A program made the position numbers and the translations under genes. A stretch of DNA of 64,000 bases from Chiloscyllium plagiosum (Eukaryota): the NCBI RefSeq assembly GCF_004010195.1, contig NC_057739.1, positions 7,104,897 to 7,168,896 on the forward strand, written 5' to 3'. The notes beneath the pieces are model-generated. The model worked only from the letters and a program-made list of their open reading frames with translations, was not told the origin of the DNA and made no database searches. This document shows, piece after piece, positions 1,154 to 45,654 of the stretch (positions are counted from its first letter, which is position 1; every line of letters begins with the position of its first letter).

Positions 1154-1161
1154 CGCACCTT

Positions 1162-4470: not shown

Positions 4471-4479
4471 CAGATGGCA

Positions 4480-8650: not shown

Positions 8651-8726
8651 CCTTTGGTATTTAGTGAATTCCAGAAGAGGAACTAAAGGTTTCCCGCAGC
8701 TTTGTTTTTTCCCTTTATTCATTCAC

Positions 8727-9567: not shown

Positions 9568-9741
<174 letters not shown>

Positions 9742-10876: not shown

Positions 10877-11056
<180 letters not shown>

Positions 11057-12166: not shown

Positions 12167-12364
12167 GGAAGTGAGCACTGCAGATGCTGGAGATCAGAGT
12201 CGAAAAGTGTGGCGCTGGAAAAGTGCACAGGTCAGGCAGCATCCAAGGGGCAAGAGATTTCATTCTTTCATTCCTGATGAAGGGCTTATGTCCGAAACGT
12301 TGACCCTCCTGTTCTTCAATACTGCCTGACCTGCGGTGCTTTTCCAGCGCCACACTTTTCAAAG
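12167..12364. mobile_element. Non-autonomous fold-back PLE-tail element with central hammerhead
   Basis: Inverted arms (~12202-12255 vs ~12305-12361); 13-bp TSD TTAAAGATCTAGA at 12154-12166 and 12365-12377. Confidence 0.85.
12271..12303 (+). ncRNA. Minimal hammerhead ribozyme motif, intact core
   Basis: ttc-CTGATGA-a-gggc(ttat)gtcc-GAAA-cgtt-ga. Confidence 0.72.
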
Positions 12365-12956
12365 TTAAAGATCTAGACTTTGATATACAGGGCACAGTTG
12401 CATTGTGAACTAAGTGTGATGTATAACTTGAAAAGAACAAGTTAGTGGAATGGTCGATGACCTCCAGTGCAGAGAAATGTGAATTGATTCATTCTGCTAG
12501 AAAGAATGTGGAAAAGCAATATAAATTAAAGGGTATCGCATGAGCACAGAAACCTAGATATCTAAGTACATAAGTGATTGAAGCCACAGGACAGGTAGAG
12601 CGACAAGTCATTAATGGTTTTTATTAATGGCATAGAGCACAAGAGGAAGAATATTATGTTGAGCTAGTATAAACCATTAGTTTGGACTCAGCTGCAATAT
12701 TGTATCCAGCTCTGGGTGTGAACATCTGTGAAGATTTTGGAGACTACAGAAAAGATTCAGGAGATTGGTTTCAGGGCTGAGAAAGTTGGGTAGAAAAAGG
12801 GAAGGTTATGAGGAGATTTGAAAGATATTCAGAATTATGGTGAGGTCTGTACAGAGTGGATAAGGAACAACTGTTCCCAATTGTAAAATCATCAATTGAG
12901 TAATACGAGGAAAAATGTTTTCATGTCATAGTTCATATGTGGAGAGCACTGTTTGA

Positions 12957-13058
12957 ATGTGTGTTTGCCCGCTGAGCTGGAAGGTTCATTTTCAGCTCAA
13001 CGAGCAGACCTACATCCAAAACCTCAACCTGAGCTACAAATCTTCTCAAAACTCGCTA
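12957..13058 (+). mobile_element. Short PLE-tail insertion with small inverted 5' segment
   Basis: Shares 'gagctacaaatcttc' tail with 4145-4159; 12-bp TSD AGCACTGTTTGA at 12945-12956 and 13059-13070. Confidence 0.75.
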
Positions 13059-13250
13059 AGCACTGTTTGAGTTTGTGGTTAAGTATTCAAAATTAGGTAT
13101 ATACAGAGTTACAGGGTGACAGCAGTGGAATGGTACTTGGCGAATTGCACATTCGGAGAAATAATACAAGTAGTTACCCTCCTGTGCAGTACAAAATTCT
13201 AATTTGTGAAGTTGCATTTTAATTTGTGGTTTTCCCCTCCAATGCATTGA

Positions 13251-13583
<333 letters not shown>

Positions 13584-13817: not shown

Positions 13818-14191
13818 GCTGTATGTATTGCCATCTAGTGATAGGATCATTACATTACATGTTGAAGAAGGGCCTGTGCCCGAAACGTCGAATCTCCTGT
13901 TCCCTGGATGCTGCCTGACCTGCTGTGCTGTTCCAGCAATAAAGTTTCAACTTTGATCTCCAGCATCTGCAGACCTTACTTTCTCCTCATTACATTACAT
14001 CCCAAGGCATGATGATTGTGGCTTCATTCAATCATCCAATGAATTCATTTTGAACTGGTGATCATGTAAATGAGGCTGTATGTATTGCCATCTAGTGATA
14101 GGATCATTACATTACATCCCAAGGCATGATGATTGTGGCTTCATTCAATCATCCAATGAATTCATTTTGAACTGGTGATCATGTAAATGAG
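13818..14191 (+). repeat. 117-bp tandem duplication (filled then empty insertion site)
   Basis: 13818-13860 plus 14001-14074 is identical to 14075-14191. Confidence 0.9.
13861..13986 (+). mobile_element. Short hammerhead-headed PLE-tail element
   Basis: Begins gTTGAAGA-agggc(ctgt)gccc-GAAA-cgtc, then the shared 'gatgctgcctgacctgctgtgc...ccagcatctgcag' tail; 14-bp TSD TCATTACATTACAT at 13847-13860 and 13987-14000. Confidence 0.85.
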
Positions 14192-24940: not shown

Positions 24941-25108
24941 ATGAGGAAACTGGTGAAATCAACATTGATGTCTTGGTGGTTGGAGGGTCCCAAGGCGGAA
25001 GATGAATCATTCTTCCTCCAGACATAGGGTGGCTAGGATTTGGCAGTGGAGAAGGCCCAGGACTTGCATATCCTTGGCGGAGCCTCCTTCACCGCCAAAT
25101 CCTAGCCA
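24940..25108 (-). mobile_element. Penelope-like GIY-YIG C-terminal fragment with short inverted arm
   Basis: Minus strand SAKDMQVLGLLHCQILATLCLEEE..IFRLGTLQP matches the end of ORF 30224-30919 (SAEDMEVLGLL); 25083-25108 is an inverted copy of ~25031-25056. Confidence 0.75.
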
Positions 25109-25174
25109 TATGAACATATTTGAGGTACCTCTGGAGTATGGTCCAGTTGATTGCCCGCTCCATGTGAAGCACCA

Positions 25175-25510
25175 GCTCACGCCCAGCGGCGGTTGAAGGG
25201 TTGCAGTCACGTGCTGCCCTTCCGACGCAACCCTCCCCAATCGTCGTCATCGATAGGGCGGGCGGCGAGGGCAAGAACCCGGTCACCTCACCGTGACTGG
25301 TTACAAGGGCTGTCAATCACCCACCGGAGTGTGGGCGGGAGGAAGTTGTCTTAAACCGGGGGTGGGAGGAAGTTGTCTTAAACCGGAAGCGAGTGAACGA
25401 GGTGGAGAGCGCGCGAGGAGGGTGAGTGCTGGTGGCGGTTGGGGAAAAGCAGGCGCGAGGGCAGTCTGTCCAACTGACCAAGGTGGTCCCCGCGAGGGAT
25501 TTCTGCGGGG
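25175..25510 (+). promoter_or_regulatory. DPH7: CpG island, probable DPH7 promoter and non-coding exon 1 (donor at 25422)
   Basis: Local CpG enrichment, GC boxes (GGGCGG), ETS-like GGAAGT/CCGGAAG motifs, consensus donor G|GTGAGT; I saw no other non-repeat CpG island between ZMYND19 and the DPH7 ATG exon. Confidence 0.65.
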
Positions 25511-25906
25511 AATTCAAATCATAAGAGTTGTTTTGAGTACATTGTGGGAGGTTATGCTATATGATTCAGTCTCCAGGAATGTGCCCCATCTGTGGTTTAT
25601 TTTGGGACCTGGTGGAGAGGAGAGCGCCGGTGGGTTTGTAGTCCCTGTCTTGCCCTTGGTCGATTCTTTATGTGGGATTAATGCAATTTGAGGAAATTGA
25701 GCGTCTTTAGTTCGCTTTAGAGGAGTAAAGCCCTTCAAATGGGAGGATTTATTTGTCCTGGCTGCTAAAAGGATTAGGCTGGTTCTGTACAGGTCCTGGA
25801 TGTTTTGAGTGTTGTGCGAATGATTTTAGTTTTAGTCTACCCTGTTGGTTGGTCACCATACACGCTGACGACAACTTTTGTGTAATGCTTTTAACATAGT
25901 CAAACG

Positions 25907-26046
25907 TAAAAAGGTAAAAACGATGACTGCAGATGCTGGAAACCAGATTCTGGATTAGTGGTGCTGGAAGAGCACAGCAGCTCAGGCAGCATCAGAGGAC
26001 AGGCAAAATCGACGTTTTGGGCAAAAGCCCTTCATCAGGAATAAAG
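25907..26046 (-). mobile_element. Short PLE-tail element with decayed hammerhead
   Basis: Reverse complement of 30909-31028; core reads CTGATGA-agggcttttgccc-AAAA-cgtc. Confidence 0.85.
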
Positions 26047-27049
26047 TCTCAAGACTGTTCCCATGAGTAAACTGGGCTAACGTTGACAACGAGCTAAGTC
26101 AGGCGCCACTAAGGCTGTAAAGTTTTGGTGACAGTGATAGGTGTTTCGATCCATAGCTGCTAATGTTGGGTGTTCATGGGGCCAGAGGTGGAAATTGTAG
26201 GGCTGGTGAAAGTCGACAGCTGAGCATATTGAGGAGCAAACCAACGTTTGATGCAAATCAGTACATTTGTCCCTCTTTCCCCATCCATTCTGATCAGAAC
26301 CTAGTTCTTGTCAGCATGACCTCCCACTCTTTTCTCTGTTGCAGGCCTGGATTTCCACCTGTATGTTGTCAGTAGGAATGAATCTCTAATTAAATGGAGA
26401 CAAAGAGAGAGCAGGCAGAATAAATATCAAAGGGGAAATAGGAAGGGGAGGGAAGACCAATGAAGGAGAAATTGGTAGTATGGAAGTTAGTGAAAGGAAT
26501 TTGTATACAGATGTTAATGGAAGGAGTCATAAAAAAGTTGGGAATGTGCGAACATGAGAAAGGAAGGACAGTAGTTAATGTGGGTGATAATGGCAAGGTT
26601 TAAAAAAAGTCTTCAGGGAGTATTCCAAATGCTAGCTGTGCTAGGATATAGTGGAATAACAGTGCCTCCTTAATCTTTTCATTTTAGAGGACAAAGTCCG
26701 AACTCTCAAGTCACCAAGTTAGTCCAAAAAGTTTATGTGAAATCATGAGCTTTTAGAGCACTTGACATCTTAGTGGAAAGAGAAAGTGAAATGATATCTG
26801 GTGTAAGTGGATTGGCTTAAAGAAGACCTTCAAAGGATATGGTTGCTTGAGGTGAATTGTCGTTGGTCTGATTTTTTTTTGTTAGTGTAGTATGTCTGTT
26901 TATTCAGCACTTAATGTTGATATTTAAGGTTGCAAGGTACATGCTGATCTCAGTTCACTGTTGTCTGTCCCTCATTGTAGGTGACTGTTTTTCACTTTGA
27001 GACAAAAATGACAGCATATTTGTGTACTTTCTTGGGGCTGTGACTTGAC

Positions 27050-27290
27050 AGAAATTCTGGGATTTAAATAATTAATCAAAGCCTGCACCCCCGTTCTAAG
27101 CGATTAAAGACTTAACAGTAATCTAGGTTTGTCTAATACGTCACATCAGTTGTACGACACTTTGATCTTGTAGTATAAATTGTCCTATGATCCTGTCCCA
27201 CTAGCTGCCTGATGAAGGAACAGCACTCTGAAAGCTTGTACTTTCAAATAAACATTGAACTATAACCTGGTGATTTTTAAACTTGTGCAC
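27050..27290 (+). mobile_element. Tail of another PLE family with hammerhead at 27206-27240
   Basis: tgc-CTGATGA-aggaacagcactct-GAAA-gctt-gta followed by AATAAA; palindromic AAGCTT stem III; stem II weakened. Confidence 0.65.
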
Positions 27291-27939
27291 ACTAGAATTG
27301 TAGTGCACCAATGTTAGAGGGAATGAATGGTTAAAGTGGTAGATGGGGCTAATCAGGTAGACTGTTTCACGTTGAAAGATTTTGAATTTCTTGTGATGTT
27401 AAACTGAGCTCTTCCAGGTGTAATGTTAAAAGATTGAACATCTCTTTTTGGATGTTAATGTAATATTAAAGGGTTAAACTGCATTGACTCCACATTCTGG
27501 AATGTGGATGACTCCAACCCCATGTAGACAGTCATTTGCTGCTACTCCCCTTACTATTATCAAATTAAACTATCATTCTAACTCTTCCATTCAGAAATGC
27601 TTTCATAGACATCTGAAGCTACAACATATCACACTTACATTATCTTGGGGAATCACTAAATCGTCTGCATAACAATTCCCTAGGATTAGGGCATTTACAT
27701 TTGCATTATTTCAGAGGATGATCTCAACCTATCTTTGTACCTGGGTTAACACGTGGCTGGGGGGTTGTCTTGAGTGATGTGACTGTGGCGGAGTGGGCAG
27801 AGCATTTGTAAGCATTTGCCAACTGATCTGTATAAAGGGGGTGTGTTTTCTTTGTTCGGGGCCTCTTTGACTCGACTTCACGTGCCTGTGAAGAGGGTCA
27901 AAGGGGTCACCTAGCTTGCACAGGCTTTAATAAGCTTTA

Positions 27940-28275
27940 GGTGAAAATGAATACTGCAGATGCTGGAAATTAATGTCAAGAGTGTGGTGCTGGAAAAGCA
28001 CAGCAGGTCAGGCAGCATCCAAGGAGCAGGAAAACCGATGTTTTGGGCAAAAGCCCTTCATTAGGAATGAGGCTGTGAGCCTTGGGGTGGAAAGATAAAT
28101 GGGGGAGAAGGTAGCTGAGTGTGCAATAGGCAGATCGAGGTCAGGATAAAGGTGATAACTCGGAGAGTGGTGTGGTGCGGTGCAGATAGATGAGAGGGAA
28201 GATGGATAGATGGGACAGGTCAGGAGGACGGAGCTGAGCTGGAAGGTTGGAATTGGGTACGGGTGCTGTTTTGCA
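27940..28275 (-). mobile_element. PLE-tail element (antisense) with purine-rich linker and decayed hammerhead
   Basis: 'ctgcagatgctgga...cagcaggtcaggcagcatcc...gggcaaaagcccttcattagg' followed by a GA-rich region homologous in reverse to 58530-58830. Confidence 0.8.
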
Positions 28276-28433
28276 GAAGTTGGTGTGTGAATTGCATGTC
28301 GTGTGTCAAACCTTGGGGAAAGAGCACAGGCAGCTAGGGAGTCTTCCTTCACCCATGTGTCTTCTATTATATATGGAGTTTGCAGCTTGTGCAGTTAGGT
28401 TACTGGAGTTGAAAAGTGTGGTGCTGAAAAAAC

Positions 28434-28755
28434 ACTAGTAACCTAACTGGGAGAAAGTGAGGACTGCAGATGCTGGAGACCAGAGTTGAAAAGTGTGGTG
28501 CTGGAAAAACACAGCAGGCCAGTCAGCATCCGAGGAGCAGGAGAATTGATGTTTCGGGCATAAGCCCTTCAGGAATGAGGCTGGTGTGCCTGCTTGGCAC
28601 ACCAGCCCCCTTCCTGAAGAAGGGCTTATGCCCGACATGTCGATTCTCCTGCTTCTCGGGTGCTGCCTGGCCTGCTGTGTTTTTCCAGCACCACACTTTT
28701 CAACTATGGTCTCCAGCATCTGCAGTCCTCACTTTCTCCCAGTTAGGTTACTAGT
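28434..28755. mobile_element. 322-bp near-perfect palindrome of two PLE tails
   Basis: Arms are reverse complements (mirror ORFs 28435-28719- and 28470-28754+); central hairpin GGCTGGTGTGCC/GGCACACCAGCC at 28579-28607. Confidence 0.92.
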
Positions 28756-28971
28756 CTAGTGACCTCCCCAGGATGTTGATCAATAGGAATTTCAGCAGTG
28801 ACAATGTTTTCGTGGTTAGACACTCATGATGGAGGTGAGCATTACTTGGTGTTTGTGTCTCCCCTCTGTTATTTATCGCCATTAGACTCTGATAAGAAAT
28901 TGTATTGTTTGGGAATCAGGTTCGCTCCTCGAAGAGGAACTGAAATTCATAATTTAGAGTTCTAGGGATGT

Positions 28972-29655
28972 TGTAACCGAAGGTGATCGCTAAGATCTGA
29001 GTCGATTGCTGAGCCAAGTTTGAAGCTTTTTTTGTTTTATCTGCTATTTAATGTGCAATTTATTACTTGACCAAGATTTGCCTGTTCAGGTTTGTGTCCC
29101 CTACTTATTTGGCTAGCTAAGTATAAGGTGTTGCAATTTGATTGGTAAAACTATGCTATGTTAAGCAAAACATACTTTGTTCATACGTTAGTTAAAATGC
29201 AACAAAAGAAGAAATTGGAGTAACTTAACTTTTCCAGCAGTGTTAACAATAAATTATTTAATTACTCAACAGTGACTGTTCCAATATAGTAGCTTTCAAT
29301 AACCACAACTTTGGCAAAAGGCAAATTCAGTAAAATAGATTCTCACACATGCAATTCTAGTAGCAGGAAGAGAACCCCCAGCGTTTGGTTGGAAATAAGA
29401 AGAAAAACAGTATCTACATCCAGCTTCAATCCCCAGCAGCTGCTACTGAACAACTAAAATGGAAAATCCTTTTTGTGGGGTAACGTACCCCTTTCTGTTC
29501 AGGCTGCTTCTATTGTTCCAACTTTTACCAAAAGAAACCCCAAAGCCTCAAACCTGTTTTTTGGATTCAAATAGACAGCTTGTTCCTATGTTTTAAAACC
29601 TCATTTTTTAAAAAAAAACGGACAAAATGCACCCTCTTAAGACCATAGTGTCTTT
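28972..29655. mobile_element. LTR-like interspersed repeat, second copy at ~46375-47565 split by a CR1
   Basis: Shared blocks 'aacaaaagaagaa(a)ttgg', 'aatatagtagc', 'aggctgcttct..ttgtt', 'ggacaaaat.cacc' in both places; starts TGTAAC. Confidence 0.45.
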
Positions 29656-29716
29656 GCAAACTTCTTGGAATCTCAGCTAGAATTGGGTTTGAAGTATTAC
29701 CCAGAAAATCTTAAAG

Positions 29717-31030
29717 TTCCTCCAGATCTCCTTTGAATCCTCCCACTACCTCCAGATCTCCTTCGAATCCTCCCACTTCCTCCAGACCAAAGGGGTAGCC
29801 ATGGGCACACATATGGGCCCCAGCTATGCCTGTCTCTTTGTGGGCTACGTAGAACAGTTGATCTTCCGTAATTACACCGGCACCACTCCCTACCTCTTCC
29901 TCCGCTACATTGATGACTGTATTGGCGCCACCTCGTGCTCCCGCGAGGAGATTGAGCAATTCATCAATTTTGCCAACACATTCCACCCTGACCTTAAATT
30001 TACCTGGACCATCTCTGACACCTCCCTCCCCTTCCTGGACCTCTCCACCTCCATTAACAACAACTGACTTGACACTGACATTTTTTACAAACCCACCGAC
30101 TCCCACAGCTACCTGGATTGCACCTCTTCTCACCCGTCCTCTTGCGAAAATGCCATTCCATATTCCCAATTCCTCCGCCGCATCTGCTCCCAGGAGGACC
30201 AGTTCCACCACAGAACACACCAGATGGCCTCCTTCTTTAGAGACCGCAAGTTCCCTTCCCACGTGGTTAAAGATACCCTCCAACGCATCTCGTTCACATC
30301 CTGCACATCCACCCTCAGATCCCACCCCTCCAACCGTAACAAGGACAGAACGCCCCTGGTGCTCACCTTCCACCCTACTAACCTTCGCATAAACCAAATC
30401 ACCTACCGACATTTCCGCCACCTCCAAACAGACCCCATCACCAGGGATATATTTCCCTCCCCATCCCTCTCCGCCTTCCGCAAAGACCGTTCCCTCCGTG
30501 ACTACCTGGTCAGGTCCACGCCCCCCTACAACCCACCCTGCCATCCTGGCATCTTCCCCTGCCACCGCAGGAACTGTAAAACCTGCGCCCACGTCTCCTC
30601 CCTCACCTCTATCCAAGGCCCTAAAGGAGCCTTCCACATCCATCAAAGTTTTACCTGCACATCCACTAATATCATTTATTGTATCCGATGCGGTCTCCTC
30701 TACATTGGGGAGACTGGGCGCCTCCTGGCAGAGCACTTTAGGGAACATCTCTGGGACACCTGCACCAATCAACCACAGTGCCCCATGGCCCAACATTTCA
30801 ACTCCCCCTCCCACTCTGCCGAGGACATGGAGGTGCTGGGCCTCCTGCTACTTTCTCCCCACCCCCACCCTCCTCTAGCTTATCTTTCTACGCTTCAGGC
30901 TCTCTGCCTTTATTCCTGATGAAGGGCTTTTGCCCGAAACGTCGGTGATGCTGCCTGAACTGCTGTGCACTTCCAGCACCACAAATCCAGAATCTGGTTT
31001 CCAGCATCTGCAGTCATTGTTTTTACCTCC
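29717..31030 (+). mobile_element. 5'-truncated Penelope-like element, second family: RT C-terminus, GIY-YIG, hammerhead tail
   Basis: GVAMGTHMGPSYACLFVG..LRYIDD (ORF 29801-30067), NIIYCIRCGLLYIGETGR..FREH (ORF 30224-30919); ends in the same tail as the short elements. Confidence 0.92.
30913..30945 (+). ncRNA. Minimal hammerhead ribozyme motif, intact core
   Basis: ttc-CTGATGA-a-gggc(tttt)gccc-GAAA-cgtc-gg. Confidence 0.75.
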
Positions 31031-31574
31031 TTAAGCAGCATAAAACCTAGTTTAACTTTCAGGTAATTGCATAACTTCTTGCTGTTGAACCTTATTAAAT
31101 ACCTCTCCAACTTATCCCAACTGCTCACTTGTCCAATTTATCACATCTTGCTCAATCATTTCAAATACGATTCCAAGAACTGCAGGGAGACAAAAAAAAA
31201 CTGCAGCAAAACATTGTTGCTTGGATATTCTGCTGAGGTGATGGTCCCAGATGCACAACTCCAATGACTATGCGAAATCCCAGCCTTGTACAAATTGCCT
31301 GATAATTGACTATTCCAATGAGCAATTTCCCTGCATTTGGAATCCTCCCAACAAAAAGAACCCTTAAAGTTTGAATATTTGCAGGATTCTATTTCTGTTA
31401 ATAGTTACCAGGAAAGTTAAGATAATTAAAACCTTAGTCAAATTCTTGAGTAACAATTAAACTACTACTGACTAAACTCATTATTAAGCTTTCCAGCCTC
31501 AAATACTGAGACAGACACTCTGGTTTTCTGGAGAAGTTGGATTCAGAAGTGTCTAGTAGACATTTTTTGCTATT

Positions 31575-31885
31575 TGTTCACAGGATGAGCATGTAGCTGG
31601 CAGACCTAACATTACCCTTAATTTCCCAGAGGCCAGTTTAGAGTCAACATCATTGCTGTGGGTCTGGATTTGCATGTTGGTCAAATCAGGCGAAGATGGG
31701 AGATTTCATTTCCTAAAAAACATGAATAAGCCAGGTTTTTCCTGGCAGTTGGCATTGATTACATGGTTGACGTTAGGCCAGCTGTTATTGAATTCAGAGA
31801 TCACCACCTGCCTGTGTGGGATTCAAACCTATGTCTCCAGAATTTTGGCCTGGGGTTCTGGATTGTTATTAACACTGCCGCTTCC
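31575..31885 (-). mobile_element. tRNA-derived SINE with L2-like tail (antisense)
   Basis: B-box in reverse 'gggattcaaacc'; homologous to 38950-39295. Confidence 0.6.
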
Positions 31886-32312
31886 TCTCTGGTAATGCGG
31901 AGGAATTTTAGGTTGGGGAAATTTCTGGATATAGTGGAAATCTGTTGCTTTTTGGAAGGTAGACCATTTCTCTGTGGAGGGTGTTGAGTAAATAAACTTC
32001 ATCCAGCTTGGTGAGATTGGAATTGCGAGGCCTAAATGCAGTCAGGTAAGATGGGATTTCTGTTTGAAGGACAAATTATACTCAAATTTGGACTTTTTTT
32101 TCCCCCAGAAGTGATGAATTTTGTTTTATTCAAGTTTCCACCCGATTAATTTGTCATTTACCAAGTATGAATTCTTCCATGAAGTTGAGCAATTGGGCAG
32201 TATTTGAAAACTCAGTATTTTACATTTAAATATTCAAGTAGTTTGATTAAATTATGAATATAGCTGAAAATGAGTTATTACAAATAGATTTGAAGCTAGC
32301 GTGTATATTTTC

Positions 32313-32449
32313 AGCTTTGACAAAGGGTCAGTTAGACTCGAAACATCGTCTTTTCTCTCCTTACAGATGCTGCCAGACCTGTTGAGATTTTCCAGCATTT
32401 CCTCTTTTGGTTTCAGATTCCAGCATCCACAGTAATTTGCTTTTATCCA
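32313..32449 (+). mobile_element. Short PLE-tail element, variant family, decayed hammerhead
   Basis: TTGACAA-agggtc(agtta)gactc-GAAA-catc then 'gatgctgccagacctg...gattccagcatc'; 12-bp TSD GTGTATATTTTC at 32301-32312 and 32450-32461. Confidence 0.78.
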
Positions 32450-32563
32450 GTGTATATTTTCTTACCAAGTTGAAAGACTGTATGGTCACTTTGAGAGAGC
32501 TGAACTGACAGCACGTGTATGTGACTTGCTAATAGGTGTAGGGAGCGCTGAGAATTGATAATG

Positions 32564-33187
32564 TGTAACAATCAGCTTGGGATTGTTTTGATGTTAAGGC
32601 AACAGGATTTGAATGTAAGCAATTAATTTAAATTATGCCCAGGATACCAAAAACCATTTGAATTTAATTCTATTGCTAACATGAGACCAATGAGAGTCTT
32701 GGGAGTATAAAAAGGAAGGCAATTTTGAAAATTAGTTGGAACTAACTGCCCATCAAACATGAGAGCACCCCATCTGAAAGGGTTCTCAGTGAGCTCAAAG
32801 AAATCTCTCCGAAGAGTATTTAAAGAGTAACAAGACTGTTTGTTTGTTTTTACTGCGAGTATTTTTATTTCTAAACAATGCCCAGGGAGAAGAGAGCAGA
32901 TTTGGGAGGACCAGAAAGAAGACAGTATAAGAGACTGGGCATTGAGATTAATGTTCAAAAATTGTTATTAGAGCAGCACTTTGAGTTGGCATCAGTGATT
33001 TGTTAAGAAAAAGGGGACTTGGGTTTATTAGTAGTTTTTGTTTAGTGTTTACTGTTAGAATTGGGTATTTTTCTTTAAGCATTGGACATCAGGGGTTTCT
33101 TTCATTCTTTCGTTTAGCAGATTGAGACGGGGCAAGCTTATCTAGGTGTTTTAGTTATAATTAGCAGAGGTGTTCTGCATCGTAACA
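32564..33187. mobile_element. Possible solo LTR (TGTAAC...GTAACA)
   Basis: TG...CA termini and internal TATAAAA (~32706); no partner or TSD established. Confidence 0.35.
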
Positions 33188-34071
33188 ATTTTAATAACCT
33201 TGTTATAGACTATTTTTAATGTATGCGTTGTAATGTTAATTAGTTGGAAAGTTCTTTAGGAGTTCCTGAGGTCATACAATAGTCTAGAGAAATGTAAGTC
33301 TTTGTTGTTTTAAATAACAGAATAATTTAAAGTGCATGACTGTTTACCAGTTTCACTGCATGACCTGCAATGTTTTAATGCATCTAATATTTTTAATATT
33401 TAGCAACTTCTAATTAGTATCCCTGTGACTTTGTTTTTGTGTGTGTATATAAAGTTTAATTTCAAGAGATTCCTTGAAGTCCCCACAAATCAGTGGAAAC
33501 CTACTGCACTGATTTGATGTGGGAACATTATGAATTTTAAAAAAGACCATCTTCCAGCAAAATAACTTTGAAATGTTCTAAAGTGCATGTGGCAACCTCT
33601 TTGCAATGGTTTCAATTTAAGTTTGAAATTCCTCACCTTTTTTGTTGGTTTGGCTGAGTTTTGGCAAATAGTGCTGAAAAAGCAACGCATCTGGTACTGT
33701 CGGTGGTATTTTGAATGGGGTTAAGGGAGCATCATTTTGGAGTGAATAGATGAAGCTTTAGACTTGGAGATTTTGTCTGGCCTCAGTCCTTGAAGTTGCA
33801 GAAATGGGAGCTTTTTTTAGCCAGTGCTAAATAAACATAAGGTCACAGGTGCAATTCACTACCTAATGTTGGTTTTACATATTTAAAATTTAGTTTTCAT
33901 GGTCATGGCTGTTGAGAAAAATAAATGCTATATCAAGAGATCTCAAGTTTTTGGCCTTTGTGGTGGCTTTGGCAGTTGTGGGGGTCATATGTTAAAAACT
34001 TTGTAAAAAAAAAAGTAATTCAATAGGGTTAACAACCAGTTTTCAAACATTCAGGCCGGAGTCATAGTCAT

Positions 34072-34800
34072 AGAGATAGATAGGATAGTGAAGGTGGTGT
34101 TTGGTATGCTTTCCTTTATTGGTCAGAGTATTGAGTACAGGAGTTAGGAGGTCATGTTGCGGCTGTACAGGACATTGGTTAGGCCACTGTTGGAATATTG
34201 CGTGCAATTCTGGTAGGGAGAGGCTGAACAGGCTGGGGTTGTTTTCCTGGAACGTCGGAGGCTGAAGGGTGACCTTATAGAGGTTTACAAAATTGAGGGG
34301 CATAAATAGACAAGGTCTAAGGTAGAAGACAGGGTGGTGGTGGAGGGTTGTTATTCAGACTGGAGGCCTGTGACCAGAGGAGTGCCACAAGGATCGGTGC
34401 TGGGCCCTCTTTTTTTTTTGTCATTTACATAAATGATTTGGTTGCGAGCATAAGAGGTGCAGTTAGTAAGTTTGCAGATGACACCAAAATTGGAGGTGTA
34501 GTGGACAGTGAAGAGGGTTACCTCAGATTACAACAGGATCTTGACCAGATGGGCCAATGGGCTGAGTAGTGGCAGATGGAATTTAATTCAGATAAATGTG
34601 AGGTTCTGCATTTTGGGAAAGCAAATCTTAGCAGGACTTATACATTTAATGGTAAGGTCCTAAGGAGTGTTGCTGAGTGTTTCAGATTGGTTTGTACATG
34701 ATAGGCACCTGGATGATTAGTAAAATGAGGGGTATGTAGATTAGTTTTATCTTAGGATAAACGATTGTGCAGCATCAAGGGCCAAAGAGCCTGTGCTGTA
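34072..34800 (+). mobile_element. Rearranged CR1/HER1 LINE RT fragments
   Basis: IYINDL..VSKFADDTKIGGVVDSEEGYLRLQQDLDQMGQWAE; a downstream RT segment (34075-34315) precedes an upstream one. Confidence 0.88.
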
Positions 34801-35178
34801 ATGTTCTATGTTGTATGGTCTATGCAGTGAAAGGAGATAAGATAGATTAGGGAGAAAGGAATAAGTTCTGTTGACGATGCTGTAGGTTGCTTAAATGAAA
34901 CCTATTTGTCTATTTCTGCACTTTGCGCTGCAGATGGTACGTCTGTACTTTGTAATATATCAAAATCAATATTTTAAGTTACGTATTTTCATTATGATGC
35001 TATTTCAAATCTGTATAATGCTTTTTGCATAAGTTTGGAACTACTTCCTTGCTAAACAATTAAATGGTTTTTGTTAGTGAATTTTATCCATCTAAATTGA
35101 CGTTAATTGTCAACTTTCTTCGTTAGATGCTGCATTTCTTCTGAATGATCGCACCAGGTTTTGGAATGAATGAATGAC

Positions 35179-35319
35179 ATGGAGGCTCGATGCACAGCTC
35201 GAACCCTGCAGGTGGTGGATACAGAGTATAGTGCAGATGCTGTAGAGTGGTGCCCCATTGAAACATGGCACAATGTACTGACTTGTGGCACTTATCAACT
35301 GAAGAATCCCAATGAGAAG
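35179..35319 (+). CDS. DPH7: Diphthine methyltransferase DPH7 (WDR85), first coding exon (MEARCTARTLQVVDTEYSADAVEWCPIETWHNVLTCGTYQLKNPNEK)
   Basis: DT-x-x-SAD-x-VEWCP...CGTYQL signature; strong Kozak gacATGG; alternative in-frame ATG at 35170 follows an in-frame TGA; donor AAG|gtatag. Confidence 0.93.
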
Positions 35320-36271
35320 GTATAGTGCCATTCGTAAGAGACCTTGATTCAAGCAGCAAAGATAGGAGAAAGATTAAACTAGTCAGCCCCTTGAGTCCAG
35401 TCCGCCATTCAGTACGATCATGGCTGATCTGATTTACTCTGTTTCTGCTTAGCCCTGATTTTACTTTTCACCTGTTGGCTTATCAAGAATCTATGTATCT
35501 CTGCCTTAAACGTTTGAAGGACTCCACTTCACAGCCTTGAGAAAGAGTTCCAAAATTTCTTAATGCTGAGAAAAAAAATTCTCCTTTTAACTCTGTCTAA
35601 AATTGTCAACCCTTTATTTTAATAGTGACATACTATTCTGTATTTGCCCACAAAAGGAAGCATTCTTTTCACATGGAACCTTTCAAAACACCAGCAAATA
35701 TTTATTTCAATCAAGTCATCTGTTGCTTCTCTAAACTCCTGTGGATGCAAATCTAGACTGACGACCATTCCTTGAGGCAAACCACCCATTCAGGTATTAG
35801 TCAAGTAAACCTCTGATATGCTTCCAGTGCATTTGCATCCTTAAGTAAGGTGAGCAGTATTATAGCCGTACTTCAAAATGGTGTCTCGATGTGTTGATAA
35901 CTTATAAGACTAACTATTTTTTAAATGTTTAATGTACTAGGACTTCCTTCTTAGAACTGATGAATGCAGATTAGAAGGCTTTTGTTTTATTTCATAACTG
36001 CTGCACTCAGTGGGACAGAAGTAGGAATACTCCAATTGTCCTGATAATTCCGAAGCTCTGAAAATTAAACATCTTAATTTCAGCAATTCACAAACTGATC
36101 TGTGTATAATTCATCTGTCGTGATGATTGTCGAGAGTAGGCTGTGGTTCAGGTGTGATTCCTGTTACAGTTAAAATATTTAATTCAAAAACTTTAACTCA
36201 AAGACTCCCCTTGAACTTAGCATGCTTAGCAGTTTTGTGTTTAACTTGTTTAATTTGTGGGTTTTTTTTAG

Positions 36272-36411
36272 GGTGCAGGAGACTCTGACAGCAATGAGCC
36301 CCATTTGAGACATGGGCGTCTTTATCTTTACTGTTTCAATGAGGATCAGCACTATTCTCCACTAACAGAGATACAGAGGATTGAAATGCCAGCAGTATTA
36401 GATCTCAAATG
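36272..36411 (+). CDS. DPH7: DPH7 coding exon 2 ([47 protein letters not shown])
   Basis: tttttttag| and |gtaagc; R-x-GRL-x-LY and LD-x-KW motifs. Confidence 0.93.
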
Positions 36412-36757
36412 GTAAGCATGAAGAGTTTCACGCGTTGGGTAGTCCATTATTAAAGTTGAATTATTTTTTGGTAGCACTCAGTTGCAGTGGAGATGACAAT
36501 AGACAGTTGGATCAGAAGCTCATCTCTGAAACGCCACCAGGGCCAAACAGCTTGCTTCTTCTCACAGTTCAGGCTCTGAAGTATGGGGATTTGGATAAGA
36601 TGCACATTAGAAGTGTTGTCTCGAATAAGTTGTTGGTTTTTGGATATTTTGTGACAGATGGTAACGGACATCGAGACTCGTAGTTGCACTCCTAAGAATC
36701 ACAGATTCACATGAACTGTGGTTGTCTTTAGAAATTGATGTTAAGTTTATAGATTTA

Positions 36758-36995
36758 TAGAGTCATAGAGATGTACAGCATGGAAACAGGTCCTTCGGTC
36801 CAACCCGTCCATGCCGACCAGATATCCCAACCCAATCTAGTCCCACCTGCCAGCACCCGGCCCATATCCCTCCAAACCCTTCATGTTCATATACCCATTT
36901 AAATGCCTCTTAAATGTTGCAATTGTACCAGCCTCCTCCACTTCCTATGGTAGCTCATTCCATGCACGTACCACCCTCTGTGTGAAAAAGTTGAC
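36758..36995 (-). mobile_element. HER1/CR1 LINE 3' tail (young)
   Basis: 'atagagtcatagagatgtacagcatggaaacag...' shared with 47653-48205 and 41288-41615. Confidence 0.85.
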
Positions 36996-37410
36996 CTAAC
37001 GTTGGGCATGGTTAGGAACATGGGACTGGCATATCATAGTGAAGATCTACAACTCTTCAAGAGGGGTCTCTTGGTTTGAGATCGGTCAAAAGAATCGACA
37101 AATGCGGTCTATTCAAAAAGCAAGGGTCATTAGCTTATTAAATTAAGCTATCTTGATGTAATTCTATTCAGCAACACAGAGATTGAAGCTTCTGTGTTCC
37201 GTGGTGAAGTTGCGCAATTACATTTGAAAATTAACATTATTATTTGTTTTTTAAGAAATAGTACAGCCTTAATTATAAGAAAGACCAATCATATAATAAG
37301 GTGACATGATTTACAGCAAGTTAATCCAATGATATTTTCTGGAAAAGGGTTCTTAATTACAAGAAAGGTCCAATCAACTGTAGTACGGTGACATGATTGA
37401 AGACCGGCTA

Positions 37411-37910
37411 NNNNNNNNNNNNNNNNNNNNNNNNNNNNNNNNNNNNNNNNNNNNNNNNNNNNNNNNNNNNNNNNNNNNNNNNNNNNNNNNNNNNNNNNNN
37501 NNNNNNNNNNNNNNNNNNNNNNNNNNNNNNNNNNNNNNNNNNNNNNNNNNNNNNNNNNNNNNNNNNNNNNNNNNNNNNNNNNNNNNNNNNNNNNNNNNNN
37601 NNNNNNNNNNNNNNNNNNNNNNNNNNNNNNNNNNNNNNNNNNNNNNNNNNNNNNNNNNNNNNNNNNNNNNNNNNNNNNNNNNNNNNNNNNNNNNNNNNNN
37701 NNNNNNNNNNNNNNNNNNNNNNNNNNNNNNNNNNNNNNNNNNNNNNNNNNNNNNNNNNNNNNNNNNNNNNNNNNNNNNNNNNNNNNNNNNNNNNNNNNNN
37801 NNNNNNNNNNNNNNNNNNNNNNNNNNNNNNNNNNNNNNNNNNNNNNNNNNNNNNNNNNNNNNNNNNNNNNNNNNNNNNNNNNNNNNNNNNNNNNNNNNNN
37901 NNNNNNNNNN
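37411..37910. other. Assembly gap (500 N)
   Basis: Run of N. Confidence 1.
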
Positions 37911-38949
37911 GATTGATTGAATTGTACTGCTCGAAATATGCAATTGTACATGCTGTACTGCATGTTTCCAGCTGGAAAAGAAATTGCAAAATAAATCACT
38001 GAGTGAGGTACTTCCGGACCTTTGGCTGCAAAAGAAACTTTTAAGTTGAAATGGTGTATGTGCTTAAATGTCTACATTCATAAATAACCTATGAAACAAT
38101 TCTAAAATATTAGAAAGAATACAATATAAATGTAATTGTTGTATACAAATGTTAGAATTAAATTTGTCTGAATTTTAATTGATCCTGCCCCATCTAGTGA
38201 CAGGACTAGTCACTGCAGGGTGCAACTGCCTCCATTGACTACCGTCTGCCACTAAGTGGAGCCAAAGACTGTTCCGAATGGGAGCTAGCAGAAATGGCTA
38301 CTGGAGAGTCAAAAAAATTCTCAAAACCTTGAAAGGACAGGAAAGGGAATTCTTTGGGTTGGGTGAAGCAGGGAAGGGGAGGTAGTGTCAGTGGCGAGAA
38401 AGGGCTGAGGACAGTGACAGGAGCGGAGAAGAAGGACTGAGCGCAGAAACATGAGAAGTCTTGAGCAGGTAGTACAGGATGTATGTGGGGCATAATGTTA
38501 AACTGAAACTCCCAATGTTAAAGATGTTGTCACAATTTTATTAGTGACCTTAAAGTGAAACAAAGTAAATGTCGGAAGGATGCTCCTAATGACTGAAATA
38601 CAGAACCAAGAGTCGAAGGACATGGAGTAGGCCATTTAGGACTGTAATTAGGAAAAATGTCTTTACCCAGGCAGTGGTGAGGCTGTGGGATTCTGCTACA
38701 GAAAGAGGTTGATGCCAAAACAATGTTTTCAAGAATAAGACAGTAGTTATTATTTTGTATTATTGTTGTTAAGGGATCAAAGGGTATGGAAAGAAAGCAG
38801 GAACGGGTGACGGAGTTGGATAATCAGCCTTGATCACATTGAATGGAAAAGCATGCATTGAAGTGTCAAATGGTCAGCCCCAATTTTCTGTAAAATGACA
38901 TTACACAGTAAGGCCTTATTTACTTCGTGCTTTTTTAAAAAAAAATGTT

Positions 38950-39295
38950 CATCCATGCAGTGAGGGTGTTGCTGGCTAGGCTGGCATTTATTGCCCAACC
39001 TTAATTACCCAGAGGGCAGTTCAAGGTCAACCATATTATGTGATTGTGGATTCACATGTAGGCTAGACCAAGTAAGGATGGCATTTTCCTTCCCTAAAGG
39101 ATGTTGGTAAAATAGATGTGATTTTCTGACTACCAACAATAGATTCATGGTTGTCATTAGATTCTTAATTCCAGATTTTTATTGAATGTAAAATCCACTA
39201 TCTGCTGTGGTGGGATTCGAACCTTAGTCTCCAGAACGTTACCTGAGATTCAGCATTAACAGTCTAGTGGTGATAATGCAAAGCCATCACCTCCC
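38950..39295 (-). mobile_element. tRNA-derived SINE with L2-like tail (antisense)
   Basis: Reverse B-box 'gtgggattcgaacc' near 39210-39223; tail 'gcatttattgccca'. Confidence 0.72.
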
Positions 39296-40511
39296 TATTT
39301 TCCCACTAATTGTTTTACAGTCAGAATTTTTGAAATATAGGAAATGCAGCAGCCAGCATACAAACAAGTCTCAAATGACCATACAATAATTACCATCATC
39401 TAAGTTTGGTGATCTAATTGTAAATGAAGCATTAAATATTCGCTAGAGCATAGGATAATTTTGCTTCTATATTGGGATCTTTTATGTTGACCCATTTGGC
39501 CTGTAATGTCACATCCAAAAGACAACACCTCTGAGAGTACAGCACTCCGTGTGGTACATCGAAGAAAGAGCTTATTTAAGGAAGGATGTAAATGTGTTGG
39601 AAACAGTTTAAAATAAGGTTTACCAGACTGATATCTGGAATGGACAGGTTGTCTTGAGGAAAGCATCCATTGGAGTTTAGTGGGTAACTTGATAAACGTG
39701 ATCCTGAGTAGTATTGACCAGCTGCATGTCTAGAAGACATTACCTCTTCCACAGGATTGAGAACTAGCATTCAAAGATGAAAAATTGTTTTCTCTCAGGC
39801 GATCTTGAGTCTTTGCTTACACAACTTTGAAAAAAATGACTTCCAGAATCCGTGTCTCTTTAAGGTTGTTAAATAAATTCTTGGTGTTGTGTTGATGAGA
39901 GTTTTTTAGAATTAGGTTGTGGGAATATGGGATAATCAGGTCAACCATTTATTTAATGGCAGAGCAGGCTCTTAAGGCCAAGTAGGCTGGTCCATCTCAT
40001 TTGTATGTTGGTATGGGTTGAGGTAGAGGCAAAGTAGTGTCACTAATCTAAAATTAGGTGATCTTATGGATAACATGTTGGAAGTTCACAAGATTGCAAG
40101 CAGTCTTGTTCAATCCCGGACAGTTGGCCGCATGAAGCATTGGTAGCTTCAGTCTTCCCAACGTGATGACCAGGATCTTGTTGGAGAGATCAGTTAGGTT
40201 AAGCAAAGGAATGTCATGCGTAGAATTGACATTTGTAAGAGTCAGTTTGTAGCAGTCATGACTGGAACCTCCGTGACGCTAGTCAATTGTATTTTCCTAC
40301 TGCTGGCTAACTCTCCTCAGACTACAGACCTAACCTGAGATTTTTGTAATCTGCAAGTTTAATATTGAGCTGTATGTTGTATCTACCACTTCAGGCAGTA
40401 ACGTCCTTTAAACGTTTGGAATTTGTTGACTTAAACTTTAAAAAACCGTTTTCTCTCAGTGAAATGAATGCTTGATGTTTGGAATCTAATCTAAAGCTAT
40501 TTTGACTGTAG

Positions 40512-40599
40512 GTGTCATATACCAGTGGCAGGGCATCCTATTCTTGGCATTGCGAATGCTGAGGGAAGTCTGGAACTGCGTAGTTTGACACAATGTGAG
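40512..40599 (+). CDS. DPH7: DPH7 coding exon 3 (CHIPVAGHPILGIANAEGSLELRSLTQCE)
   Basis: tgtag| and GAG|gtatgt; CHIPVAGH matches vertebrate DPH7 as recalled. Confidence 0.93.
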
Positions 40600-40679
40600 G
40601 TATGTGGATTCATTGTTCTATAGGGTTATTAAGGAAACTTTTGAGATGCTAATCATCTTTTACATTTATATTGCATTTG

Positions 40680-40822
40680 CAGAGTAACCTCTATTATCTG
40701 AAGTATGCAGGCAGGGAGTGTTTTGTTCGGTTAATCGAATGCCGGATAAGCGAATGCTGGGTAACATCGTTAAGCCAAGCATTGGTACTTTGCGATCTTG
40801 CTCGATAATAGAGGTTCCTCTG
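40680..40822. mobile_element. MITE (Tc1/mariner-pogo type) copy 2
   Basis: TIR CAGAGTAACCTCTATTATC...GATAATAGAGGTTCCTCTG followed by TA. Confidence 0.78.
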
Positions 40823-41287
40823 TATTGGTAGAATATGCATCTCAATACATTTTAGCTAATGCTTTAACTGAATTTAACGTCTGCTGGGATGTGGCCACTG
40901 TCTCCAGTTCACCCCACGATGTATTGTTAGTTGTGGAAAAAGAGGTTGAAGCAGTTATCAAAGTTTTGCATTAGAGAAATAGGCAATTTATGTTGAAATC
41001 CTGAGTTCTGATGAAAGGTCATCAAAGTGAAATGCGAACTTGCTTTCTTTCAGATACTATCTGACCTGAGTTCTCCAGCTGGAAGAATAATAAGCTGGTC
41101 GTGATAATGTCTGTAATGCCAGAAATGCTTCAGAAGGTTATATTGGTTGAAGCTTAATATTTAAAGCTTTTTTTTTTGCTTGATTTTTGTACTATTGTGA
41201 TATGGACTTGTTTCCATTTTTTTGACCAGTTTGAGTTGGAGGCATAAATTTAACATGCTGCCGTTGGGATTAATTATATTGTTTTAC

Positions 41288-41615
41288 GTAGTCATACAGT
41301 ACGGAAACAGGCCTTTGGTTCAACTCATCCATGCTGACCAGACATCCAATCTGACCTGGTCCATTTGCCAGCATTTGGCCTCTGTTCATCTAAGCCATTC
41401 CTATTCATGCCCATCCAGATGCCTTTTTAAATGCTATAATTATATCCACCTCTGTGACTTCCTTTTGGCAGCTCATTCCATTCATGCACCACCCTCCATG
41501 TGGAAAAGTTGCCCTCTGGTCTTTAAGTCTTTCCCTTTTAACCTTAAACCTATACCATCTAGTTTTGGACTCCCTTATTGCGAAAAAAAAACCTTTGGCT
41601 ATGTGCCCCTCATGA
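41288..41615 (-). mobile_element. HER1/CR1 LINE 3' tail
   Basis: Homologous to 36758-36995 and 47653-48020. Confidence 0.8.
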
Positions 41616-42306
41616 TTGTTTTTTTAAAATAGAAGCAGGTTATAGTCTTATTGTTTGCTTTTGTTGAGGGCATAGATTTTAAATCATTTTATACAACTGA
41701 GTTTATATAATGACTTAATTTGAAATAACAAAAGTTTTTAAAAAATTGTTTTGGAGCCAGTGTAACGTAGAAGTATATTGTGGAGCTGTTGCTTCAAATT
41801 GTTCCCACAATAACTGCTGTTTCTGATAGACTTGCATCTTGAGTCTGACAGCTCAATATACTTTTGTCAGATAGATGTATGGACGCAACAAAGTAGAAAA
41901 TCATATTTCTGGATGCAATGTGTGCAAACCTCCTTGCACATTCACTTTTGTGAAGTTCTTGCAAAATTACTGTTGTTAATGGCTAAGATTTGAGGTTTAA
42001 ATGGGTTTATACAATGCTGCTTTATATAATTGCAGTTTCAATTAGTCTTCATTCGTCACCCCCACTTCTCCATCCTGAAATAGGAATAATTTATGGATAT
42101 TTGGTAAGGGCAAGCATGGTATTGCCTCTAATTCTTCCTTCAGTTGACAAGTTGTAAATAATTACTGTCAAGCCTCAAATTGACACTTGTGGACTTTTAT
42201 CTCAATCATGAGTTTGATGTCATCAAGGAAGAGGTGAGAATGACAGCTGGAGTTAGGTATTAAAACAGAATTATTTATGGCTCAGTATAATATTTTCTTT
42301 CAGTAG

Positions 42307-42398
42307 AAAAACAGCTGCTCCTTGGAGCCAATGTGCAGTGTTAGCATAGGCCCAGAATGCCTTGCTCTTTCGCTGGATTGGTCATCGGGAAGAGAACA
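42307..42398 (+). CDS. DPH7: DPH7 coding exon 4 ([30 protein letters not shown])
   Basis: CLALSLDWS motif; tandem acceptor CAGTAG where only the second AG keeps the frame open; donor |gtaagt. Confidence 0.9.
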
Positions 42399-43599
42399 GT
42401 AAGTCTTTATTCCTGCCCCTTCCTTTTGTTGAGTTGTGTTTTATGGTATTTCATAGAATAATACAACGCAGGAGACCATTTGACACATCAAGTCTGCACC
42501 AGGTCTTTCATGGAACAATTTTGATTAGTCTCGGTTTTGTACTGTTCTCCCTCATGTCCCTGAAATTTACTGCTTTGTGTATGTAACCTTCCCTTTTGAA
42601 GGTTTGTATTAAAATTTTTCCCACCATCCTTTTCTCAGTACATTTGCTGTCCTATCCAGTTTTAAAATTAAAAATAACCTTGTATGTATGTTGCCTTTTT
42701 CAACGAGCCATTTCTTGACTGTTTGGAACTTGGTATGTGATTAACTAGTTTCAGATCTACCTTATTGTGCAGTGACATTTAGCTGGTGGGGGTAGCATGG
42801 GAAAGTGTGAAAAATGCTGGACTGGAAGGAAACAAATGCTGGTGTACAATATGTTGTGTGATTAGTACAGTTTTTACTCAATAAAATGTGGAAAAACTCT
42901 TCTTCAAACTTGTATCTCTGTGTCCATTATAAATATTCAGAGAAGCTACATTGGCCATGACTTATAACTGTCTGTTCTTTGTGAGCTCTGACCCAAAAAG
43001 AACTTAGTCCATTATACATTCACCTCACCACCAATTTATCCTGTTGGGTCAACTGTTGTCTGGAAATGATGTCACCCAACATTCAATCTAGTTCTTCCTA
43101 TGTGTAACACCTATTAGCTCCCCAGTCTATCTAAAAGCAATAATTGGAGGTAATACAGTCTATTCCATTCTTTATTTCATAGGAAGTTAAGCAAATATCC
43201 TTCAATTTTGCATTTCTTTAAAGTATATTGACCCAGTATTTTAAGCCTTATCATTAAGCTAAGATACTTTACTATATCCCCATACAATGTAGAGGTAGTG
43301 AAGGTTGCTCAGCCAGTTGGATTGATCTTGCTCTTCATCGGACTAATTTGTTGCTAACAAATAGCAAAAATGCTATAACTGCCACCCTGATTAATGTGGA
43401 TTTTGCTAAAAGGAAGTTTCTTTAAAAAGTAGATTTTGTGATTACTTCATTCCCTTGCCCTTGCACACTGTCAAATTAATGTGTAAGTATTGCATAAAAT
43501 TCTTATTGCTGCTACTATGTTTTCTGGTCTTGGAACTGAATGTTCCTTTGTGCAATATAAGAGTTTTAATTCAGTGGTATTTTCCCTTCTCTGCTAAAG

Positions 43600-43763
43600 T
43601 GAGCCGCTGAAAATCATCAGTAGTGACTCAAAAGGCTACCTGAGCCTCCTTTCTGTGGATGGGTATAGATCAACACTAGATATAGTCTCTCACTGGAAGG
43701 CACATGACTTTGAAGCTTGGATTGCAGCTTTCGACTACTGGAACACAGATTTTGTTTATTCAG
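43600..43763 (+). CDS. DPH7: DPH7 coding exon 5 (EPLKIISSDSKG...WKAHDFEAWIAAFDYWNTDFVYS)
   Basis: AAG acceptor after pyrimidine tract; AH-x-FEAWIAAF motif; G|gtaggt donor; phases consistent. Confidence 0.92.
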
Positions 43764-44553
43764 GTAGGTTTACGGAGTCCTCCTGAGCAATTGTGAAAAG
43801 ATCAGCCCAAATGTGCTTTTTCTTATCTGTGCATGAGTTGAACTTTTGTTTTTACATCTTAATTTTGATTTTTCACCCCCCAACCCTGAAGTTGTTGCAC
43901 AGTTGTATTCTGTCCTCTAGTACTGTATCCCCCAAGTGACTATATTCCCCTCATCTAAGTATAGATAATTCAGACTACTGTATTTCATAATATTTTGAAC
44001 TGAATGGAAAGAGAACATATCATCTGGGTCAGGATTTGCCCCCTCCGGTTTCAGAATTCCGGCATCGTGTGCAATAGGGCTCAAAAGCCTGTCTTAAGTG
44101 GTGAATGTTTGAAGTGACCAGATTCAGATTCCATTGTTAGAGGTGGCCAGTTAAAGGGTTGAGCTTGCTGCCCAATTTAGAACAGCAACTGAATTCTTTA
44201 AGATGGAGGACTAATAGATTCTTCCAGAACTGAAGAAGCAACAAAGTCTGCCTTTTTAGGTAAGTTAAAGGGAGGCTGTGCTCTGTCCTCAAGTTATTTA
44301 ACTTTATATTTTTTAAAAAATGGCCTCAGCAAGTTGAACTGTGACTATAGTAGAAGCTTGGCAAGGAGGAAGGGGCTCTGTTTTTTTTTTACTCAGGACT
44401 GGCACAAGTGTTTAAGTGACAGTTTTTTCCTTCATTTTTGCACTTGACAGTTTGTCAACCTGAGAGTAGAATCTGGGAACAAGATGGCTGGGACCTAATG
44501 ATCTTACTGTAGGGCTATCTATATTTGTTGGGTGGCAGTGTCTCAGTGGTTAG

Positions 44554-44769
44554 ATTAGATTACTTATAGTGTGGAAACAGGCCCTTCGGCCCAACAAGTC
44601 CACACCGCCCCGCCGAAGCGCAACCCACCCATACCCCTACCCCTACATTTACCCCTAACCTAAACACTACGGGCAATTTAGCATGGCCAATTCACCTGAC
44701 CTGCACATCTTTTGGATTGTGGGAGGAAACCGGAGCACCCGGAGGAAACCCACGCAGACACAGGGAGAA
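44554..44769 (-). mobile_element. Young HE1-like SINE (5'-truncated, antisense) nested at the head of an older SINE
   Basis: CpG-rich reverse complement of the SINE core and tail with (TAGAT)n; flanked by a 51-bp direct repeat. Confidence 0.88.
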
Positions 44770-44796
44770 CTTACTGGAGGGCTATCTATATTTGTT

Positions 44797-45118
44797 GGGT
44801 GGCAGTGTCTCAGTGGTTAGCACTGCTGCTTCACAGTACCAGTGAACTGGGTTCAATTCTACCCTCCAATTGTCTGTGTAGAGTTTGCACATTCTGTCTG
44901 TGTTTGCGTGGATTTCCTCTGGGTGCTCTGGTTTCTCCTCAGTCCAAAGGGTATGCAGGTTAGGTGGATTGTTCATGCGAAATTGCCCATAGTGTCCTGG
45001 GGTGGATTAGGTGGATTAGGCATGGGCAATGCGGGGTTATAGGGTAGGGGATGGTGTTTGGAGGGTCACTGTGGACTTGATGGGCTGAATGGCCTGTTTC
45101 CACACTGGAGATTCTGTG
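44797..45118 (+). mobile_element. HE1-like SINE (older)
   Basis: A box 'tgtctcagtggttagc', B box 'ggttcaattc', core and tail as at 19476. Confidence 0.85.
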
Positions 45119-45581
45119 ATGTTGCCTAAATAATATTTATTTGGAAGCCTTGTAATCTCAACTGTCAACATGATAGGGCGCACAATCAAAATTTTCTTTA
45201 TCTACTGCAGTTTTTTTTAATTGAATTCTTTGAGCATCCATATGCTTTCTCAGCACCCCTCATCCTCCCTTTCTCCCCCACCTCCCCAAAGTTTGCTGAG
45301 ATTTTTACATACCTGGCCACTGAAACTTCCATGTGAGAACACCTTGACATTGTCTTTCTGGAAAACGTTACAGCTAAGTCAACTCCTGACTTTGTATCTG
45401 CACTGAATGTGTCAGCAGGTTAGCAGTCCTCGACAGATATTTCTTTTCCTCCTTAGGCATAGAAACAGTTTGATTTTGGTATGGAAATCATTGTTGCATA
45501 TTTGAGAAGATGTTCAATTCTTAAGCTGGTAAGAAAATTGTGGCTTTTAAGTTTACTGTCTGTTTTTATTTCCCACTCAAG

Positions 45582-45654
45582 GTGGAGATGACAGCAAGCT
45601 CAAAGGCTGGGATATGAGGATGGGAACTGAGAGACCAATTTTCATCAGCAATGG
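45582..45654 (+). CDS. DPH7: DPH7 coding exon 6 (GGDDSKLKGWDMRMGTERPIFISN)
   Basis: GGDD..KGWD WD40 motif; caag| acceptor, GG|gtaccg donor. Confidence 0.9.

Follow-up and report, generated by a model that had tools for sequence, protein, structure and literature searches.

A palindromic Penelope-like element insertion in a shark genome contains an inverted copy of its own target site

Head-to-head insertions with inverted pLTRs and a 30–40-nt tail are known for EN+ Penelope-like elements (PLEs) (PMC3846280, PMC8557442). As the source of PLE palindromes, self-priming on an antisense template has been proposed (PMC3846280), and the origin of inverted PLE structures is described as unresolved in the sections of three reports considered here (PMC8557442, PMC3846280, PMC11167929). 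In vitro, a PLE protein (anole Poseidon PAc) extends both strands and uses two start sites that delimit the tail (PMC11167929). Among other retroelements, snap-back of the cDNA before junction formation has been described for R2 (PMC11371274). For L1, the supplementary legends report an inverted duplication of the target flank (Fig. S9C) and inverted or templated target DNA at insertions (S9 and S10; PMC11702581). In addition, a four-point model of short-range replication template switching has been proposed (PMC5453318).

The insertion studied here occupies positions 28392–28755 (364 bp) of a 64,000-nt stretch of DNA (the window) from the shark Chiloscyllium plagiosum. It is bounded by a target-site duplication (TSD) of 13 bp, CAGTTAGGTTACT, whose left (28392–28404) and right (28740–28752) copies on the plus strand are 100% identical, as the first-pass annotation of this DNA had claimed. 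Adjacent to the left TSD is a 31-nt (29–31 bp) piece of the element in minus orientation (28405–28435), the outer end of which coincides with the pLTR/tail boundary, that is, with the tail-less end. The same annotation had described it as an aborted tail fragment of ~29 bp, but it turned out to be pLTR sequence ending ~33 nt before the 3′ end of the element. The piece has a private A at 28427, and its last two nucleotides (AC) are common to it and to an inverted target copy, ACTAGTAACCTAACTG (28434–28449, minus strand). This copy consists of the TSD plus 3 nt of the right flank, 2 of the 3 being the microhomology; it is an inverted match to 28740–28755, with a chance expectation of ~1e-7 over 400 positions. 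The reported third copy of the target, inverted and inside the insertion, is therefore real. If position 28405 was once an A, the TSD would be 15 bp long and the inverted copy would match it to within one base.

The rest of the insertion is made up of two arms. The left arm (28450–28590, minus strand) contains the tail and the 3′ part of the pLTR with a damaged hammerhead (a 3-nt deletion in the core). The right arm (28596–28739, plus strand), in the sense orientation of the element, contains a hammerhead remnant (GACA for GAAA), the end of the pLTR and a 35-nt tail (28705–28739); the 28739/28740 junction is presumably the first-strand priming end. Between the arms is a perfect 12-bp stem (28579–28607) with a 5-nt loop (28591–28595), and the same element base ends both arms at this center. 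The proposed 322-bp palindrome that includes host bases (28434–28755; halves 28434–28590 and 28596–28755 with a 5-nt spacer), its 12-bp central stem and the damaged hammerhead in each arm were all confirmed. Between the halves there are 10 substitutions and a single 3-bp indel, not counting the mismatch at 28591, which belongs to the loop. The DNA fold of the palindrome has a z-score of −30.7 relative to 100 shuffles, and the RNA hairpin is predicted to fold strongly (−303 kcal/mol), with stacks of 49 and 39 bp. An Rfam match to mir-9168 (33 bits against a cut-off of 100) reflects hairpin shape in general. In the right arm, the changes disrupting the hammerhead also give rise to CGACATGTCG (28633–28642), a perfect 10-bp palindrome that may reflect a small quasi-palindrome correction.

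As to the identity of the element, the arms correspond to the last 141–144 nt of a repeat with eight further matching stretches in the window (71–85% identity); they form the 3′ terminus of a shark PLE of very high abundance. Per sequencing run, 83,654–124,342 contigs fell on a 1.6-kb stretch, where the depth is mainly that of the copies of the element; these are DNA contigs from 4 of the 24 listed runs, placed at 90% likeness, and the placement is swamped by paralogs. The consensus hammerhead core pattern is intact at 12274 and 30916 and is matched by neither arm of the insertion. Rfam produced no match at the gathering score, and the six sub-threshold matches obtained at E-values up to 10 did not include a hammerhead. 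A decayed coding relative at 29693–31028 (plus strand) has a reverse transcriptase (RT) fragment, a GIY-YIG region and the intact hammerhead core at 30916. Its 3′ end (30913–31028) is 71% like the arms and represents a different subfamily, the two being bridged by the copy at 58456–58830. For the ORF of this relative, GIY-YIG is present in 23–50% of the members of the nearest Atlas clusters (0.96–0.97), the RVT_1 match is weak and under the Pfam cut-off (E 8.5e-4), and no Pfam match to GIY-YIG was found. The insertion itself encodes nothing; judging from its sequence and linked indirectly through these relatives, it appears to be of the EN+ PLE type (RT plus C-terminal GIY-YIG). The hammerhead within the pLTR is likewise a feature seen through relatives, the core being broken in both arms. 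The 35-nt tail is found on some ends only; neither the 31-nt piece nor the second end of the copy at 12165–12362 has it. An inverted 5′-truncated copy and a short TSD are both present at 28392–28755. We take the labels "Neptune-like" and "Poseidon-like" for these elements to denote resemblances.

Several other elements are found in the window. A canonical head-to-head copy of the same family (12154–12377) has a TSD of 13 bp, a tail on one end but not on the other, unequal arms (12165–12362) and the intact hammerhead core at 12274. A second family is represented by a decayed, almost full-length PLE (1154–4178) with an inverted tail-less 5′ copy, an 8-bp TSD and hammerhead cores at 4061 (plus strand) and 1234 (minus strand). 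At 13818–14191, a PLE copy of 126 bp that retains its CpGs and has a TSD of 14 bp is directly followed by its own empty site, repeated exactly over 117 bp; here, filled and empty alleles of a young polymorphic insertion were probably merged by the assembler. Same-family TSDs in the window are 13 and 14 bp long. An inverted TSD was seen in none of the eight other PLE intervals examined in the window. A reverse transcriptase fragment on the minus strand at 60270–61115 (RVT_1, E 9.6e-18) is probably a LINE relic. A metagenome scan with a 29-nt element pattern gave no matches; a 14-nt pattern matched 120 loci, one of them over 19 nt and none over a longer stretch.

The gene order in 9640–56303 is ZMYND19 (plus strand; exons at 9640–13502, the last one near 14.9 kb), DPH7 (plus strand; coding exons at 35170–52166) and an ORF at 55782–56303 (minus strand), presumably MRPL41-like. 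In line with an origin in a carpet shark, the last DPH7 exon shares 97% protein identity with Hemiscyllium ocellatum and 87% with whale shark. The region 25001–25500 is CpG-rich and contains GC, CCAAT and repeated GGAAG motifs; together with splice-site motifs at 25422 (donor) and 35126 (acceptor), these suggest a 9.7-kb 5′-UTR intron of DPH7 (25422–35126, plus strand) around the insertion. The promoter-like region at 25.0–25.5 kb, 9.7 kb before the exon with the DPH7 ATG, would then likely be a non-coding first exon. The earlier placement of the insertion in a DPH7 intron thus stands for a putative 5′-UTR intron. A coding intron was rejected, as the insertion is located 6.8 kb upstream of the ATG exon.

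In our view, this structure is best explained by a single PLE integration event with a fold-back that overshot, a reading to which we give somewhat better than even confidence. The observed TSD suggests that a GIY-YIG nuclease would have cut both strands 13–15 nt apart, the nick positions being those implied by the TSD. The 3′ end of the bottom strand would have primed cDNA synthesis at the end of the tail, yielding ~145 nt and the junction seen in the sequence, while the 3′ end of the top strand may have primed a second cDNA of ~31 nt at the internal tail-less start, the boundary of which is also seen. The first cDNA could then have folded back, leaving the 5-nt loop, and served as its own template, with synthesis running across the tail and the target overhang, still single-stranded, and stopping 0–3 nt from the point at which the duplex resumes. 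The folded-back 3′ end would have been joined to the second cDNA via the observed 2-bp microhomology and the remainder filled in, by either the element RT or a host end-joining enzyme.

Three features of the locus are consistent with the fold-back, as are the same-family TSDs of 13 and 14 bp and the precedents from PAc, R2 and L1 given above. The two arms break off at an identical position in the element. At 16 bp, the captured host DNA comprises the 13-bp TSD and 3 nt, exceeding the TSD by 1 to 3 nt, of which 2 are microhomology; an overhang bounded by nicks is expected to give an inverted segment of TSD length, whereas a later switch would arrive at that length by chance. Finally, the second end coincides with the boundary of the tail, which is also the case for the head-to-head copies 12154–12377 and 1154–4178. 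Against the fold-back, it requires that a 160-bp hairpin be reopened and joined by 2 bp only; the lack of an inverted TSD in the eight other PLE intervals and of a listed contig across the inner junction also counts against it. Copying of the cDNA into target DNA by fold-back, as originally suggested, is still the best single explanation. The accompanying claim of a "direct footprint" of the integration mechanism is unproven, since a canonical insertion followed by a template switch over 77 bp gives the same sequence and the mutation pattern mildly favors that course.

This alternative, which survives best although we consider it rather unlikely, posits two events: a head-to-head PLE insertion and a later replication template switch (four-point type 1-4-3-2), whereby 77 bp of the right flank, tail and 30-mer were copied in reverse into the left arm. 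Excising 28436–28512 indeed leaves a seamless canonical PLE insertion, so that the oddity is reduced to 77 bp comprising the inverted target, the second tail and the third 30-mer. Moreover, the near-identical zone at 28434–28522 fits the predicted new copy (permutation p = 0.004, with the loop mismatch and the indel counted in). The arms differ at 1 of 79 outer sites (outside 28512) and at 9 of 78 inner sites (p = 0.009), although without CpG changes the contrast weakens to p = 0.05–0.10. The age of the insertion matters here. A contig of relative C covers 28262–28434, including the left junction, with 11 differences in 173 nt and no gaps; therefore, the insertion predates the split from C and is old. 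At this age, 3.5–5 differences are expected in the outer arms and one is seen (probability of at most one, 0.04–0.14), which counts against the fold-back. The relative C contig itself ends at 28434, and the forms predicted by the two models diverge from 28436; such a stop would be expected where a 31-mer graph breaks as it runs into a repeat. The rough likelihood ratio in favor of the template switch over the fold-back, averaged over copy time, is 0.75–4.3 if each lineage has diverged by 2.2–4.3% and reaches up to 10.7 at 5.5%, the highest divergence tried, assuming a consensus taken from the listed rows of a biased variant table.

On the other hand, the template switch needs two rare events, and its entry point must hit the TSD edge by chance, on a 2-bp microhomology and ~75 nt from the hairpin partner of 28435. 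We weighed this coincidence as ~5–10-fold against it, by judgement rather than by computation. Few old changes are common to both outer arms (among the variant rows listed, only 28480 departs from the paralog majority), and support for the switch weakens once CpG changes and paralog variants are allowed for. Homogenization of the arms after a single event would reconcile the fold-back with the likeness of the outer arms (cf. PMC8604942, PMC8794818), and later arm-to-arm correction may have evened them out.

An improbable variant of the single-event reading is that the second (top-strand) cDNA snapped back on its primer overhang, reverse-copied the TSD and re-primed on the RNA tail, so that the left arm would derive from a separate cDNA, linked to the first one at the center. 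The 3′ end of the 31-nt piece does pair at 4 of 5 positions next to the left TSD, with a 20-nt loop, and an inverted copy of TSD length is predicted here too, but two independent cDNAs would have to share both start base and stop base. Moreover, the copy at 12165–12362, which looks twin-primed, has unequal arms.

We regard as very improbable that the palindrome is an assembly or library fold-back artefact. The assembly is a gapped short-read one, with 1,347 Ns in the window and the apparent allele merge at 13818–14191; among the contig pieces listed, none from organism A covers 28355–28464, and none of the 32 spans the inner junction (28434–28450). However, the three copies of the 30-mer all differ (A at 28427, T for G at 28706, and neither in the left-arm copy), which makes a chimera unlikely, since it would have copied one of them, and the left junction is present in the contig of another organism, relative C. 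The right flank in organism A (28762–29044) shows no differences. In organism B, the bin 28340–28393 is without cover in both runs; neither this hole nor the one in organism A proves anything.

The reading that the captured 15-mer is element sequence, so that no host DNA was captured, is effectively refuted: nothing was found in its favor, none of the six other tail-reaching copies continues into the 15-mer, as would be expected of the element consensus, the 15-mer is unique to this locus within the window with up to 3 mismatches allowed, and in all four runs paralog depth drops from 2.0–4.3 million to 2,800–13,500 in the preceding bin (28394–28447), which makes it several hundred-fold lower over the inverted copy than over the element. 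Among the matches listed, left-arm contig pieces start at 28450 or later, and one piece ends at 28739. The claim that the 15-mer is host DNA is thus upheld. Taken together, the insertion is a real, old, non-coding relic of a dead PLE, and no host function is indicated.

What does this imply for PLE integration? An antisense template made before integration could not hold the target site. Host target DNA in the palindrome could be copied only after target priming, so that, if made at integration, it discriminates between fold-back of attached cDNA and self-priming before integration. This leads to a tentative generalization, in which we place distinctly less confidence than in the reading of the locus itself: PLE head-to-head palindromes may arise by fold-back of target-attached cDNA rather than by self-priming of a free antisense template, and would normally be resolved against a second, tail-less cDNA, whereas here the copying overshot through the tail and the target overhang. 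If true, a single 364-bp insertion records the two RT start sites, the two nick positions and the fold-back, and sharks should hold enough overshoots to map these steps genome-wide, given ~100,000 contigs per run, mostly of this family. A single dead insertion with a live rival settles nothing alone; it points to a signature that can be searched for genome-wide in this abundant family, namely an inverted segment whose end coincides with the TSD edge.

Our literature search brought up no PLE insertion with an inverted TSD in its interior, within a body of text to which the figures and supplements of the PLE papers may add cases. The final string is the same as in the four-point model, where an inverted insertion is copied from nearby; unlike the fold-back, that switch is independent of retrotransposition and predicts no boundary at the TSD edge (PMC5453318). 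The locus resembles L1 twin priming in that both target ends would be primed and an inverted target copy is found at the insertion. It differs in that the L1 reciprocal genomic end folds on itself, whereas the inverted target in the shark runs directly into a mirror image of the element (PMC11702581, as far as its legends describe). At R2/PRINT 5′ junctions, the cDNA 3′ end similarly primes on cDNA or nearby target before the junction forms; that system is an engineered LINE-type one in human cells, and copying of the whole cDNA into a target overhang is not described in the part of the report considered here (PMC11371274). The parallel with PAc is that the outer ends of the shark insertion fall ~33 nt apart, one where the tail ends and the other at the pLTR/tail boundary, and that both target strands would be extended. 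The shark element is of a different family and lacks a notably AT-rich target; in the corresponding part of that report, fold-back and target copying are not described and the second-strand steps are called unvalidated (PMC11167929). EN+ PLE head-to-head insertions are also close to it; in the descriptions considered, they have inverted 5′-truncated arms with a palindrome at the inverted junction, a short TSD, a tail on one end and a pLTR hammerhead (PMC3846280, PMC8557442). Unlike them, the shark locus has a tail on both arms, its palindrome runs into the host target, and the tail-less end is kept as a separate 31-nt piece. The locus is thus a variant of the known head-to-head PLE pattern, the new part being the inverted target capture inside the palindrome.
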